Positions 27,587-32,473 of a stretch of 64,000 nt of DNA are shown here, piece by piece (position 1 is the first letter of the stretch; each line of letters begins with the position of its first letter). The notes beneath the pieces were generated by a model that searched no databases, was not told the DNA's origin, and saw only the letters and a list, made by a program, of their open reading frames with translations. This DNA comes from an uncultured Spirochaetota bacterium. GTDB taxonomy: Bacteria > Spirochaetota > Brevinematia > Brevinematales > JAOACQ01. The DNA is taken from the NCBI GenBank assembly GCA_963835575.1, contig CAWIGG010000002.1, positions 640,001-704,000 on the forward strand, given 5' to 3'. Made by a program: the position numbers and the translations under genes.

Positions 27587-28489
27587 TCATTTCCTTAACC
27601 TCACAAACCCCGCCCTCACACGGCCGCGGTATCTTCCACTCCTCACGATCCCCGGAATAAAATACACTTCTTCCGATTTTAGTTTTTTAGAGTCTTCTTT
27701 AATAAACAATTTATTCAGCAGCCAGTAGAAGAGGAAGAAATAGACAAACGGCATGATCACAAATAATAGAATAACGGTGATGAAATAATTGATCGCCAGT
27801 TCCAGCAGCTTCAGGATGGACTCGCCGACAAACGTCTGGGCTTTGGTGAAGGCCTCAACGATAAAATTCTTTACTTTATTGAAAGTCTTGATCAGGAACT
27901 CGGCGATGATTGTCAGGAAACTTTTCTGCTTGATATCCTGGTCGGTTTTGACAGGCGCCGGATTCTGCGCGTTTTTATCGCTGGATTTTTGATTGACAGG
28001 TTCCTTCTGAATATTTTCGATATGCGCCTTGATGAGGGTCCCATTTTCAAGCTGGGCGGCCTGTGTAAAATAATTCGTGATATGGACGGACAGGGACAAT
28101 CCCGGATTGATGAAGAGGAGGAGGATCAAAAGCTTGACCGCCCATTTTTTTGTCTTTTCAAAAAGGGTCAAAGCCCATGTGCCGACAAGAAGAAGCTTTA
28201 TTAATAAAAGCTGACTGATCTTCAGAAGGATAAGCTGAAATAGGAGAACGCCGTTGATGATCACGAAAAAGTTGAATATTTTATCGACGATCTCGGCGGA
28301 ACCTTTGAGCAGGGGCACACCGCCTATCAGGATTTTAAGTCCTGTTACAAGCGAGAGGTTTGTTAAAGCGAGCGTTGATGAATTGCTGAGAAAGAGAAGC
28401 GCGCCCTGGTAAAAGACATCAAAGAGAGCAAAAAGGACTAAAATAAGACAGACCACGGACTGCCAGTTTTTTAAAAGAAACTTCTTCAT
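27587..28489 (-). CDS. Hypothetical multi-pass membrane protein
   Basis: 300-aa ORF with GGAG RBS and several hydrophobic helices. Confidence 0.7.
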   Translation of the reverse strand: MKKFLLKNWQSVVCLILVLFALFDVFYQGALLFLSNSSTLALTNLSLVTGLKILIGGVPLLKGSAEIVDKIFNFFVIINGVLLFQLILLKISQLLLIKLLLVGTWALTLFEKTKKWAVKLLILLLFINPGLSLSVHITNYFTQAAQLENGTLIKAHIENIQKEPVNQKSSDKNAQNPAPVKTDQDIKQKSFLTIIAEFLIKTFNKVKNFIVEAFTKAQTFVGESILKLLELAINYFITVILLFVIMPFVYFFLFYWLLNKLFIKEDSKKLKSEEVYFIPGIVRSGRYRGRVRAGFVRLRK

Positions 28490-28544
28490 AATTATACTCC
28501 ATCATAATTAATCATTCCTATTTATCGGAAAAACTCCTATATTT

Positions 28545-28849
28545 AAACACCAAGACTCCAAAATCACCAAGAATCACCAAGGAAATTTAATCCATTTCAT
28601 TGCTCATCTTGACAGTCACTTGCTTAATCCTGTTTGTGTATCTTTGTGTTCTTGACATCTTGATGCTTCAATACATTATTATAAAATGTCGAAAGCCTAA
28701 TAATAGGGAAGTGTAAATTAATCAGACACCTTAAATACATCCTGTTCTCTGTGCTCTCCTTTTTCTCAGTAATCTCTGTGTTTTTCAATAAAAGGATAAG
28801 TATTATTATCATTATGATGACCATTTCCCGGTTCTTCGTGCCTTCCCGT
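28545..28849. repeat. Periodic repeat arms left of the IS110 element
   Basis: AAACACCAAGACTCCAAAATCACCAAGAATCACCAAGG; CTTTGTGTTCTTGACATCTTGATG; TTCTCTGTG..CTCTGTG; CTTCGTGCCTTCCCGT. Confidence 0.7.
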
Positions 28850-28864
28850 CTTGTAAGCTATATT

Positions 28865-29077
28865 TTGGAGAAAAAGTTTACAAAAAATAATTCTTCAGTA
28901 GAATACCTCCTTGTGGAAGTTGTTGCTCACTACCCGCCTGCCTTCTGGTTTGAAACCAAGGCACACAGGAAGATTGCCAACTCCACAAGGACCGTTTTGG
29001 TCTCTTAAAACAATTGCCAGGATATTCCCTTGAATAATCCTGTCGCTCATTACAAGGGTGCCGAAATGGAACGGTCT
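28865..29077 (+). ncRNA. Putative IS110 bridge RNA (5' stem-loop, target-binding loop, donor-binding loop)
   Basis: Stems TCCTTGTGG/CCACAAGGA and GACCGTT/AACGGTC; loop segments match or complement the element ends and flanks; RNA ends approximate. Confidence 0.8.
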
Positions 29078-29103
29078 GATATTTTAATCTGCTGGAGGAA
29101 AAA

Positions 29104-30378
29104 ATGCTAATCCGGGATGCTATCGGGATTGATCCCGATTCACAACAGTATGTGTGTATGTATGTCAAAGCGGAAGACTGGAAAACGGAACGGAAAGCCT
29201 TTCCGGTTACCACAAGCGGCCTTGATAATCTGATCGAATGGACTCGGTCGAAAAATGACCCGATTATCGCCATCGAGGGAAGCAACGGGCAGAGTAAGCC
29301 CTTAGAGAAAGTGCTTCGTAAGGAATCGATGACCTATTACTCGTTTAAAGCAAGGGATGTTGAACAAAAGAGGAAAAGCCAGCTCCCGGCGGGAAAGAAC
29401 AACGAAAAGGATGCTCATGCCGCCGCTCTTTTGGCTTTAGAGCGTGAAATGAACGGTTCTCTGGAAAAATGGAGAAGGGTCTATCCTGTTGACAGCGAAT
29501 TACAGACGATAACCCGGAAATATGAAAGTGTAAGCGGCAGGATCACAGAGGAAATATCCGGGCTGTGGAAGCTTTTATGCGAGGCTTCCCCGGATGTTTA
29601 CCTGTTCTTAAGCGGCAAGAATATGGAGACGGATAACAGACGTAATGTTTTGAATAGCGCAGGAGTACTGAATTTGCTGTGTAATTGTCCCGATTTAAGC
29701 CAATGGAGGAGATTAAGCGCGGAGAAAATGAAAGAGCTGATGGGTGGAGGCTCTTATAGAGGCCGGGATAAGACCATCGCCGGCTTACAGGTAATAGCCC
29801 AAAGAATCTTGGGTGTAGCGGGCCCCATTTCCATGATGATCCGGCAATCTGCTGAAAATATTATTCTTTTGAAAGGCCATAAGGAAGAAATGAAGAAGAT
29901 TTTGGATAATCTGGCTGAATCCAGGGAAGCTGTCCGGGTTTTAGCCTATGACGAATCCAATGGCAATGGGTTGAAAGGAATCGGCGTGATCACTGCCTCT
30001 ACGATGATAGCCGAGATTATTCATATCAATCGTTTTGTTAAAGAGGACAGCCTGGCGTTATATGCGGGATTCGGTATGGTGGAAGATGAAACCGGAAAGA
30101 AAAATAGGGGTGAAAGAAAGAAGATGAAACATACTCACGATTATAACCGCCGTTTGAAAAACGCCTTTATGAACGCGGCCAAGAACTTTGTTCACTGGAA
30201 TCCGGACCACCATATTTCCGGCATGCACAGGAATTTGATAAAAAATGGAATGAGCAGGCTCGAAGCGAATAAAAGGGTTGCCAGAGCATTAGTCCGTAAG
30301 ATATTTCGGATATTAAAGGACTATGAGTCTGAAAATATAAGGAAAATGGAAGAAAACGGGGTGGCAAAAGTGGGTTAG
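29104..30378 (+). CDS. IS110-family recombinase/transposase
   Basis: IGID, AIEG, KNNEKDA (RuvC DEDD domain); KGIGVITASTMIAEI..RF..LALYAGF..ETG (Tnp20 domain). Confidence 0.92.
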   Translation: MLIRDAIGIDPDSQQYVCMYVKAEDWKTERKAFPVTTSGLDNLIEWTRSKNDPIIAIEGSNGQSKPLEKVLRKESMTYYSFKARDVEQKRKSQLPAGKNNEKDAHAAALLALEREMNGSLEKWRRVYPVDSELQTITRKYESVSGRITEEISGLWKLLCEASPDVYLFLSGKNMETDNRRNVLNSAGVLNLLCNCPDLSQWRRLSAEKMKELMGGGSYRGRDKTIAGLQVIAQRILGVAGPISMMIRQSAENIILLKGHKEEMKKILDNLAESREAVRVLAYDESNGNGLKGIGVITASTMIAEIIHINRFVKEDSLALYAGFGMVEDETGKKNRGERKKMKHTHDYNRRLKNAFMNAAKNFVHWNPDHHISGMHRNLIKNGMSRLEANKRVARALVRKIFRILKDYESENIRKMEENGVAKVG

Positions 30379-30498
30379 AAACCCTGCGGAAATATTCCGC
30401 GAGCAACACCTCCATTTTCTTCCGCCTTTATTATATCGAACTACTGAGGTTTTTTAAATATTTTGATTGTTTTTTTCTTGACTTAACTAAAACAATCT

Positions 30499-30591
30499 TC
30501 CTGTTGAACTAAACCCCGTTTCTCTATTCGCGTCCATTCGCGGGTAACCTCGTTTGCGCCCCTTGGTGCTCTTAGTGTTTTTGTGGTTAAA
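30499..30591. repeat. Periodic repeat right arms flanking the IS110 element
   Basis: ATTCGCGTCCATTCGCGGGTAACC; CCTTGGTGCTCTTAGTGTTTTTGTGGTTAAA. Confidence 0.7.
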
Positions 30592-30601
30592 TTAAAGTAC
30601 C

Positions 30602-32473
30602 TCAATCTTTATTCATTTCATAGATCTCATTAAAAAGGTAGGAATTGGCGAGGAAGATTTTCAAAAGCTCCGGGTCAAAATGGGCGGGATTGACCCTGTC
30701 ATCGCCATGGGAGATGATATCGACGGCTTTTTCATGAGAGAGCTCGTATTTGTAAGGTCTGGCGCTGCGGAGCGCGTCATAGATATCGGCGAAAGCCATG
30801 ATCCGCCCGGGGAGCGGTATAAGCTTGCCCTTCAGGCGCTCCGGGTAGCCGCTTCCGTCCCATTTTTCATGGTGATAAAGCGCGATCTGCCGGGCCGTCA
30901 TCAGCACGAGCGAACCGGCGCCGTCAAATATTTTTCCGCCGATAACAGTGTGTTTTTCCATGATTTTCCATTCTTTTTGAGAAAGCCGCCCTTTTTTAAA
31001 GAGGATCCTGTCGGGAATTCCGACCTTGCCGACGTCATGCATGGGGGCCGCGAAATAGAGGTTTTCAACTTCTTCACCTGAAAGTCCCATTTTTTCGGCT
31101 AAAAGCTTGACGTAAAGGCTCACTCTCTTGATATGGGCTCCAGTTTCCGGGTCCCTCAGCTCGGCGATAATGGCCATACGGTTGATCGCTTCGAGATAGG
31201 CGAAATCGACCTTACGGAAGGCATTGTCTCTTTCCCACAAAGTCTTTTCCAGATCTGCTTTTTTTATTTCTATTTCCCTGTAAAGGCGGGTGAATTTATT
31301 TGACAGAACAAAAGAAGTGCTCAATATGAAGATCAGAAAGCCGTATGGGGAAAACGGCGCCAGCGCGTTCAGCAGCGGGGATGTGATGACATTCTTTGAA
31401 ATAATAATGTCCATGATAACAGTCAGGATCATGAAAATCATGGGATAGAGCATGACCAGAGCGTCTTTATTTTTTCTGCGTTCTCTAAGCAGAATGATAA
31501 ATATTGAAATAATAGGAATAGTCCAGCTGTATTGGTAAATATTGATATTCAGGAAATCCCATAAAGCCGGTTCGCTACTGATCAGCGCCGTAATAATACA
31601 GCCCGCCGAAACGGCGTAAAAAATGTAATGAAGAATGTTCCTTTTTTGATTAAAATGCCGCAGGATGAACTCGAAAAATAAAGGGACAACGGTAAATAAA
31701 CAGATGTATTCAATTCTTTTCAGGAGCATAAAATCCTGTATTATGAAATACTTCACTTCCGAATGCATGAAAAAATAGATTGAGAAGAACAGGCAGAAGA
31801 GGCCGAAAAATAAATTATCGGAGCCTTTTTCAATCCTGACATAGAACAGTAAAAAATAAAGGCCGAAAACTATGATGACAATAGTGAGAAAAGTTTTAAT
31901 ATATTCGGTTAAAAAATAATGATGCGTAATTTTTTGATATGGGGCGATCATGATAAGCCCGTTTATCAATCCGGCTTCATAGGAAAAATATCCTTTCACC
32001 CGTATTGAAAAAACATTGTCCTTTCCGGGCTTGATTAATTGTGAGGGGATTTCGTAGATACGGATTTTGTCATAGGCATGGCTTTTATTGTTCTCAAATG
32101 ATCCTTCTTTGCCGATAAGGATGCCGTTGAAGTAGGTTTCATCAATATCAGAGATCATGCCCAGGTTTATTCCCAAAGATCTTTCCGGAATCTCATTCGG
32201 GAACTGAACATGAATTCTGTACCAGCAGGTCCCGTTCCAGCCTGGAAAAGCCGTCTCCTGCCATTTAGACGGCACATACACTCTTTTCCACAGACTGTCG
32301 TTATAAGCGGGTTTTTTGTATTCGGGAGAATCCCCTTTCTCTATCAAAACTATATTGCTGTTATTCATTATTACCGTATTCTGGTAGTTAGAGAGGACAA
32401 AATAAGACGTATTTCCAGACAGAAAAGTCCTGCAAAAAAATAAAAAAAGAAATAAAGATATAAAACGCTTCAA
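30602..32473 (-). CDS. HD-GYP cyclic-dinucleotide phosphodiesterase with sugar-binding extracellular domain and 7TM region
   Basis: GH2-N-like WKRVYVPSKW..GTCWYR..DETYFNG; about 7 TM; ETGAHIKRV, MHDVGK, HHEKWDGSGYP, DIYDALRSARPYK. Confidence 0.92.
   Translation of the reverse strand: MKRFISLFLFLFFCRTFLSGNTSYFVLSNYQNTVIMNNSNIVLIEKGDSPEYKKPAYNDSLWKRVYVPSKWQETAFPGWNGTCWYRIHVQFPNEIPERSLGINLGMISDIDETYFNGILIGKEGSFENNKSHAYDKIRIYEIPSQLIKPGKDNVFSIRVKGYFSYEAGLINGLIMIAPYQKITHHYFLTEYIKTFLTIVIIVFGLYFLLFYVRIEKGSDNLFFGLFCLFFSIYFFMHSEVKYFIIQDFMLLKRIEYICLFTVVPLFFEFILRHFNQKRNILHYIFYAVSAGCIITALISSEPALWDFLNINIYQYSWTIPIISIFIILLRERRKNKDALVMLYPMIFMILTVIMDIIISKNVITSPLLNALAPFSPYGFLIFILSTSFVLSNKFTRLYREIEIKKADLEKTLWERDNAFRKVDFAYLEAINRMAIIAELRDPETGAHIKRVSLYVKLLAEKMGLSGEEVENLYFAAPMHDVGKVGIPDRILFKKGRLSQKEWKIMEKHTVIGGKIFDGAGSLVLMTARQIALYHHEKWDGSGYPERLKGKLIPLPGRIMAFADIYDALRSARPYKYELSHEKAVDIISHGDDRVNPAHFDPELLKIFLANSYLFNEIYEMNKD

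Follow-up and report, generated by a model that had tools for sequence, protein, structure and literature searches.

An IS110-group insertion sequence whose predicted bridge RNA matches its own ends and target, from a clade that appears to carry threonine in place of the catalytic serine

Does the insertion sequence (IS) at positions 28850-30498 of the DNA analyzed here, a 64,000-nucleotide (nt) stretch from an uncultured Spirochaetota bacterium that we call the window, encode a bridge RNA that specifies both its own ends and its chromosomal target, and could its recombinase, which appears to carry threonine in place of an essential serine, make use of it? Positions 28850 to 30498 are a complete, intact insertion sequence of the IS110 group, 1649 base pairs (bp) long (these boundaries take in both copies of the CT core; the element with one core is 1647+2 bp), and it very probably moves by bridge-RNA-guided recombination, as IS621 does. 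In the IS621 scheme the left end encodes an RNA in which a target-binding loop precedes a donor-binding loop, the CT core is contained in the guides, additional handshake bases pair, and a promoter forms at the junction of the joined ends (PMC11208160, PMC11208158; see also PMC13626964 for the mechanism). Bridge RNAs were published in 2024, with thousands of predicted orthologues, and are predicted in most IS110s. As such, the element is expected and its mechanism has been known since 2024; its target is new, and its departure from IS621 lies in the clade of its enzyme, with ~15% identity, the threonine, an asparagine and an insertion of ~80 amino acids (aa).

The guides can be read directly from the sequence, where the pairings claimed by the original prediction are all present (all features of the element lie on the + strand). 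The left donor guide, TAAAACAAT at 29006-29014, is identical to the left donor, which the final 9 bases of the right end form (30488-30496). The right donor guide, TTACAAG (29050-29056), read as its reverse complement gives CTTGTAA (28850-28856), so that it could pair with the core and the TGTAA of the left end; one handshake base, G, follows it (29050-29057 together). The reverse complement of the right target guide, ACAGGAAG (28965-28972), is found at 30497-30504 as CTTCCTGT, which comprises the right CT core copy (30497-30498, in all six copies of the element described below) and the right half of the target, TCCTGT (30499-30504). The next four bases, the target-loop handshake ATTG (28973-28976), are complementary to the last four donor bases, CAAT (30493-30496), and not to the target's own left half; they extend the complementarity to a total of 12 nt, CAATCTTCCTGT at 30493-30504. 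Finally, the left target guide, TACCCGCCT at 28931-28939, has the sense of the left target plus core: it is read against the last 7 bases of the left half-target (CTTCCCGT, 28842-28849) and the left CT core copy (28850-28851, the crossover dinucleotide), together TTCCCGTCT at 28843-28851, and matches 7 of the 9. In 200,000 mononucleotide shuffles of 28865-29077, the 9-mer, 7-mer and 8-mer guide words arose 431, 3,827 and 560 times, respectively, whereas neither the 12-mer nor all three words together arose once (0/200,000 each). The same three words occur 12, 41 and 8 times, respectively, in 2,470 other 213-nt segments of the window, counting both strands.

Folding of the RNA region had been suggested as a check; 28865-29100 yields two stem/internal-loop modules at -75.7 kcal/mol (z -4.5; 0 of 200 shuffles as good), with the guide words on the loop sides. 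The two internal loops come in the order target, then donor; their 5′ sides have the top-strand sense and their 3′ sides are complementary. The target-binding loop carries the left target guide on its 5′ side and the right target guide on its 3′ side, and in the minimum free energy fold it is closed by an inner hairpin (28940-28962) that is found at the equivalent place in relatives, where its sequence and length vary. The RNA would occupy the left non-coding end (28852-29103), which at 252 nt is longer than the right one (30379-30496, 118 nt), and it lies on the gene's strand.

As only one of 11 other genomes of the same family yielded a homolog (60% identity), relatives were drawn from wider collections: these hold hundreds of protein relatives at 41-48% identity, two at ~59% and one at 80% (locus L059), mostly from Spirochaetota metagenome-assembled genomes and from sediment or peat metagenomes. 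A covariance model, also a suggested check, was built from the aligned upstream regions of 12 loci and their RNAalifold consensus. Over 100 sources (304,943 bases) it gave 88 matches at E ≤0.001, of which 87 lie on the gene's strand just upstream of homologous genes; the remaining one is weak and on the minus strand. There is a single match in the window, the putative bridge RNA at 28903-29087 (+ strand, 155.9 bits, E 6.7e-45), and there are exactly six in the genome, one per copy of the element. Across 79 distinct rows, 95.9% of the paired cells hold standard pairs, and 18 of 31 pairs show changes on both sides, compared with 4.8 ± 1.7 in shuffles (0 of 500 reach this), in an alignment that was fitted to the model and so somewhat favors the structure; when the partners are slid, pairing falls to 26-53%. 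The loop positions are kept in the 87 relatives. Separately, most relatives (L026, L031, L034, L025, L027 and most metagenome loci) have an extra leader of ~75 nt between the left end and the RNA; it lies 50-130 nt upstream of the latter and contains TTGTGGATA repeats and a G-rich stretch, GGGGGAGGGGGAGACTAA. This leader is missing from our element, L059 and L030, in which the left end is 53 nt rather than ~130 nt from the RNA.

The genome (4.39 Mb, 7 contigs) contains six copies of the element, each 1649 bp long with at most 4 differing positions, at least 99.7% alike, and with their 424-aa frames open. Their ends are identical, and all six are flanked by CTTCC[C/T]G[T/C] on the left and TCCTGT[T/G/A] on the right, with CT at both junctions. 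Different boundaries in other copies would have counted against the original prediction; instead, the six share exactly these ends and one target word pair. Neither a target duplication beyond the CT core nor terminal inverted repeats were found in the six copies or among 49 right and 18 left ends of relatives. The left target guide agrees with the six insertion sites at 7 to 8 of 9 positions. An exact match to the reconstructed empty site occurs 11 times in the genome, and a match with no more than one mismatch 34 times, as the terminal word pair in arrays of CTTCSYGY-like words within intergenic spacers. Outside the genome, a 1666-nt contig from an unrelated metagenome holds a copy with 19 differences (98.8% alike), whose likeness to the window is lost at 28842 on the left, with more CTTCCCGT words beyond, and at ~30504 on the right. 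A decayed relic in the genome itself (G000 C2:1329628-1330118) retains the final 490 nt with the right end, at 86% likeness, and has a frame broken by two TAA codons. We are highly confident that the element works by bridge-RNA-guided recombination with CTTCCCG[T/C]-CT-TCCTG as its target, with transcription, circle and catalysis presumed; for recombination with a joined-end donor, the target-site sequence would be CTTCCCGTCTTCCTGT.

Targeting of an intergenic repeat has a precedent in ISPpu10 of Pseudomonas putida and other IS110s, all of whose insertions fall in one conserved, REP-like intergenic repeat, and for which a structural target requirement beyond base pairing has been proposed (10.64898/2026.03.19.712850). 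The equivalent here is the last two words of the word arrays; the host phylum and the repeat family differ. The arrays themselves (28800-28849, 30499-30600 and the 11 empty sites) read, for example, CTTCGTG-CCTTCCCGT-CTTCCTGT, often followed by (T/G)AAA and, in some copies, by words of the ATTCGCGTCCATTCGCG type.

If the loops are guides, they should follow the flanks and ends of each relative, and a failure of the guides to covary among homologs had been named as a result that would count against the prediction. For this comparison, ends were located without the target guides (right, TAAAAC-NNN-CT after the stop codon; left, CTTGTA 45-165 nt upstream), so that the CT found at the inferred ends of all relatives examined is there by construction, and loop sequences were taken from the model alignment. 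The right target guide was read in a fixed register, as the 9 nt that precede the final three bases of the loop; 53 loci with a right end and at least 7 flank bases gave 43 unique guide/flank pairs. Over the 7 non-core positions, the guides score 5.05 against their own flanks and 1.96 against the others', which 0 of 10,000 permutations reach; this and the other permutation figures overstate independence, since the relatives share descent, and are not probabilities. Three pairs score 2 and two score 3. Taking one representative for each distinct right-guide 5-mer leaves 28 specificities, 20 of them a perfect 5/5, with a mean of 4.54 against 1.37 (0/10,000 permutations). Agreement per position is 0.86-0.93 over the five bases after the core and then drops to 0.35 and 0.23: the right target guide is informative over the core and the next 5 nt.

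For the left target guide, a register-free scan of 51 usable loci (46 unique pairs) gave 5.28 of 7 for the guide's own flank compared with 3.94 (0/5,000 permutations). The weak cases are L106 at 3/7 and, at 4, L030, L028 (whose ambiguous end was resolved against the guide), L074 and some others. In the closest relative, L059, the RNA backbone is near-identical to ours and the target loop wholly different; its left guide and its own flank are the same over 10 of 10 positions. Beside these cases, in L030 (1330-1342) and L041 (1341-1351) the left target guide has GT where the core is CT, so that the first core base is mismatched, in the left guide only.

The donor guides follow the element ends. 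The sole variable position of the right donor guide pairs with the left end as T:A in 33 and C:G in 6 of 39 distinct pairs, with none discordant. TAAAACA is invariant in both the left donor guide and the right end; in L039 guide and end have both changed, to AAAACTAT, and in L121 the guide alone has changed. Target guides follow flanks and the right donor guide follows the left end. Covariation of the handshake bases is weak, and the target-loop handshake is nearly invariant in the clade: of 57 loci, 48 pair ATT with AAT and 3 show the reverse, AAT with ATT. At the donor loop, the handshake base and the last left-target base form 20 Watson-Crick and 3 wobble pairs among 45, a figure reached by 102 of 10,000 shuffles. 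The original prediction called the element a natural programmable recombinase with a new specificity. The new target stands; that the enzyme would be programmable is suggested by the natural variation among its relatives.

The two halves of a promoter lie at opposite ends of the element. TTGACT (-35, 30478-30483) in the right end and TAAGCT (-10, 28854-28859) in the left would, once the ends are joined, be separated by 15 bases from the right (30484-30498) plus TG from the left (28852-28853), which gives by arithmetic the 17-nt spacer proposed earlier. At the level of sequence, both halves of this putative junction-spanning promoter are conserved. Of 49 distinct right ends, 44 have TTGAC at one fixed spacing, -20 to -16 counted from the last core base, and 18 distinct left ends have TAAGNT at positions 5-10, with T5, A6 and T10 invariant, of which T10 alone is independent evidence, T5 and A6 being set by the CTTGTA search word. 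An internal sigma-70-like site, TTTACA-N16-TAGAAT (28877-28904; 10 of 12 matches), lies just before the first RNA stem and is kept in L059; it might support basal or weak transcription from integrated copies. For IS621, a junction-spanning promoter has been described (PMC11208160), and weak expression from integrated copies has been reported. As a side observation on the right end, long-form relatives (~465 aa; L031, L028, L025 and many metagenome loci) have their TGA stop codon inside the -35 TTGAC, and the gene of our element ends ~100 nt earlier than theirs.

The recombinase gene (29104-30378) encodes a 424-aa protein with a RuvC-like domain, a long coiled coil with an inserted helical subdomain, and a Tnp domain. 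It matches PF01548 (DEDD_Tnp_IS110; E 4.1e-13, 49.8 bits, cutoff 29) and PF02371 (Transposase_20; E 6.7e-13, 49.3 bits, cutoff 21.3). Similarity to IS621 is marginal for the single sequence (E 0.0038), whereas a profile of the clade reaches E 1.1e-12 to 8wt6, followed by ISCro4 (9t56; E 2.4e-8) and TasR (E 4.3e-5). AlphaFold predicts the structure with a predicted local distance difference test (pLDDT) score of 87.3 and a predicted template modeling (pTM) score of 0.76, and the ten best Foldseek chains for this model are those of IS621 and ISCro4 (8wt9, 8wt6, 9t56; E 7e-11 to 1e-9), with TasR, Nop5/Nop56/58 and RuvC next. The RuvC-like, coiled-coil and Tnp folds are all recognizable, although global TM scores are only 0.33-0.48, which is low because of the inserted subdomain and the domain arrangement. 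In the model, this subdomain of ~80 residues (162-239; 29587-29820 in the window) forms five short helices between two long coiled-coil helices. The helical insertion is clade-specific, with invariant Y166, L167, G171, W201, G214 and R221, and has no Pfam match.

The catalytic positions set the enzyme apart. Profile alignment onto IS621 places D10 on D11, E58 on E60, Asn100 on D102 and D103 on D105; in the pairwise alignment D102 is instead matched by D103, and D105 by Ala106. Three of the four residues are acidic in both cases, judged by sequence alignment only, and the (Asn, Asp) pattern is present in 70 of 71 distinct relatives. Thr330, next to the invariant Gly331, aligns with the catalytic serine of IS621 (S241), which likewise precedes a Gly. 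Of 30 aligned relatives, 29 have threonine at this position, as do 70 of 71 distinct open reading frames (69 by pattern, one by eye), whereas serine stands at the same spacing from Y-x-G in three further IS110-family genes of this genome (C2:475443, C2:1620128, C2:1856108). The context is S-T-G in 50 of the 71 frames and E-T-G in our element, and for this reason Thr330, which retains a hydroxyl side chain, is the sole hydroxyl candidate here. Threonine appears to stand in place of the essential serine in this enzyme. A literature search on IS110 elements with a threonine nucleophile and bridge RNA returned nothing relevant, and we know of no DNA recombinase described with a threonine nucleophile. 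The main texts of PMC11208160 and PMC11213020 speak of a "highly conserved serine" in IS110 recombinases and contain no occurrence of "threonine"; their supplements may list the clade.

Set beside IS621 (E. coli; PDB 8wt6 to 8wt9), the element has in common the left-end RNA in which the target loop precedes the donor loop, the CT core within three of the four guides, handshake bases after the 3′ guides, a -35 in the right end and a -10 in the left, a short intergenic repeat as target, and the RuvC, coiled-coil and Tnp domains. The proteins are 14-16% identical in structural alignment; IS621 has 326 aa and D102 and S241, whereas ours has 424 aa, ~80 of the extra residues lying inside the coiled coil, and Asn100 and Thr330. 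The right target guide pairs over the core plus 5 nt, compared with the 4-bp wild-type pairing of IS621 (PMC11208160); the handshake of 4 nt and a left donor guide unpaired with the core are likewise unlike IS621, as is the target, CTTCCCGT-CT-TCCTGT. ISCro4 (PDB 9t56), which has the same fold class (Foldseek E 2.6e-10 for 9t56_A, besides the profile match given above), is as distant as IS621, and IS622 is another characterized bridge recombinase. By its Pfam domains, fold, RNA, core, covariation and promoter sequence, the element is a member of the IS110 group; because the conserved serine is absent and the DEDD tetrad uncertain, we place it in a variant clade rather than treating it as a plain new member.

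The layout on which the original prediction built its case for a bridge RNA, with a CT core, a junction promoter, target then donor loop and handshake pairing, matches the published IS621 scheme, and the anatomy, the Pfam domains, the fold and the covariation support the prediction. On this mechanism, the element would excise as a circle, its right and left ends joined across one CT core, which would create the promoter TTGACT, 17 nt, TAAGCT. Transcription from this junction would start near 28866 and produce a bridge RNA of ~200 nt, and read-through past the T-run that follows it would transcribe the recombinase gene. The donor loop would hold the circle junction (TAAAACAAT in the sense of the right end, TTACAAG complementary to CT plus the left end) and the target loop the chromosomal site (TACCCGCCT in the sense of TTCCCG[T/C]CT, ACAGGAAG complementary to CTTCCTGT). 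A recombinase tetramer would cut and exchange strands at the CT core, assisted by the handshake bases that follow the right target guide (ATTG) and the right donor guide (G), and the element would end up within the final two words of a CTTCCYGY word array, with no duplication of the target. The element was probably active recently, and Thr330 may serve as the nucleophile in catalysis.

Several points weigh against bridge-RNA-guided movement. Since Rfam has no family matching 28000-31000 at E up to 1, so that no curated model fits, identification of the RNA rests on the covariance model built here. Transcription and circle formation are presumed steps. Among the sequencing runs listed as containing the stretch none is an RNA run, and the four that were compared with it, in which no joints were reported, consist of contigs, where circles would not show. 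A promoter scan of the region was not above shuffles (6 sites compared with 3.3 ± 1.6), and in the promoter/terminator scan the T-run after the RNA (29080-29088) was not scored as a terminator. The second base of the left target guide is mismatched at all six insertion sites, and the base before the core at four of the six; the left donor guide is unpaired with the core (TG opposite CT). Among the relatives, the left guide of L030 agrees at 4 of the 7 non-core positions that were scored, or at 5 of 9 when the core is counted, L036, L106 and L138 also fit weakly, and 31 loci with an absent or ambiguous end or an odd loop were left out of the left-guide test, in addition to the shared descent mentioned above.

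The enzyme provides a further objection, since two of the five IS621 catalytic positions (at Asn100 and Thr330) are not conserved, and IS621 mutants at S241 or D102 are inactive (PMC11208158, where the purified mutants named are alanine substitutions). The copies might then be relics of an inactive recombinase, spread by another route or by a helper, and two of the six are in fact interrupted by another IS just before the ribosome-binding site. We nevertheless consider this very improbable. All six copies are at least 99.7% alike with open frames, and the 98.8% copy occupies another site of the same word type in another sample. Moreover, the threonine and asparagine are kept in 70 of the 71 distinct relatives, from many metagenomes and each with its own matching guides, which argues for selection rather than decay.

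Still less probable is that this is a true IS110 element in which the shared words act as DNA, as protein-bound subterminal repeats or micro-homology, with no guide RNA. From sequence alone an RNA guide and a DNA repeat look the same, and the near-invariance of the donor words across the clade is what one would expect of protein sites. Yet the words lie exactly on both sides of internal loops whose stems keep pairing through double changes, the target words vary among close relatives in step with the flanks while the backbone stays constant, and an RNA mechanism has been demonstrated for IS621, the nearest solved fold (PMC11208160, PMC11208158). An IS1111-group or seekRNA-type element, which would share the two Pfam domains, the RNA-guided logic (PMC11208160) and the CT-type cores found in both groups, and would have its RNA in the right end and long subterminal inverted repeats, is hardly credible: here the left end is the longer (the IS110-group criterion in PMC11208160), the structured, covarying RNA lies in it, upstream of the gene, and the covariance model has no match downstream of the gene in the window.

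Returning to bridge-RNA-guided recombination, we tentatively propose, as a possibility that we would not quite call likely, that the element represents a widespread clade of bridge recombinases, mostly from Spirochaetota and sediment metagenomes, which would carry out IS621 chemistry with Thr330 as the nucleophile, a 5′-phosphothreonine intermediate, Asn at the third DEDD position, an ~80-aa helical subdomain and an orthogonal bridge system. If the enzyme is active as it stands, it has implications for how this family works chemically and provides a scaffold for an orthogonal editor. The locus is in any case an unusually complete natural case, in which a single genome holds the guides and both ends together with six filled and 11 exact empty sites, and its relatives amount to ~28 natural re-targetings on one conserved RNA scaffold, a table of the loop positions that matter (core plus 5 nt on the right, ~7 nt plus core on the left). 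It also ties IS110 targeting to the "word array" repeats that fill the spacers of this genome.

The IS that interrupts two of the six copies (G000 C5:162932-164606 and C2:1643158-1644832) is inserted in both at the same GCTG and in the same orientation, between the bridge RNA and the ribosome-binding site; in the window, this GCTG (29091-29094) overlaps the ribosome-binding site GGAGG (29094-29098). It is 1675 bp long, is bounded by terminal inverted repeats and a 4-bp duplication, encodes a 488-aa DDE transposase (PF13751, PF05598, PF01609), and is present in 24 full copies in the genome, many others of which are also at GCTG. Composite transposition, in which the IS110 element carried the second IS along, is disfavored by the differing single-nucleotide polymorphism haplotypes of the two hosts (at 29642 and 29718) and by the GCTG preference of the second IS. 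Because the hosts differ in haplotype and other copies of the second IS are found at GCTG, repeated insertion at a hot spot is the likelier explanation.

In the window, the element occupies the spacer between two minus-strand genes: at 27587-28489, one encoding a 300-aa membrane protein without a Pfam match, and at 30602-32473, one encoding a 7TMR-DISM/HD-GYP-type signaling protein (PF07695, PF13487).

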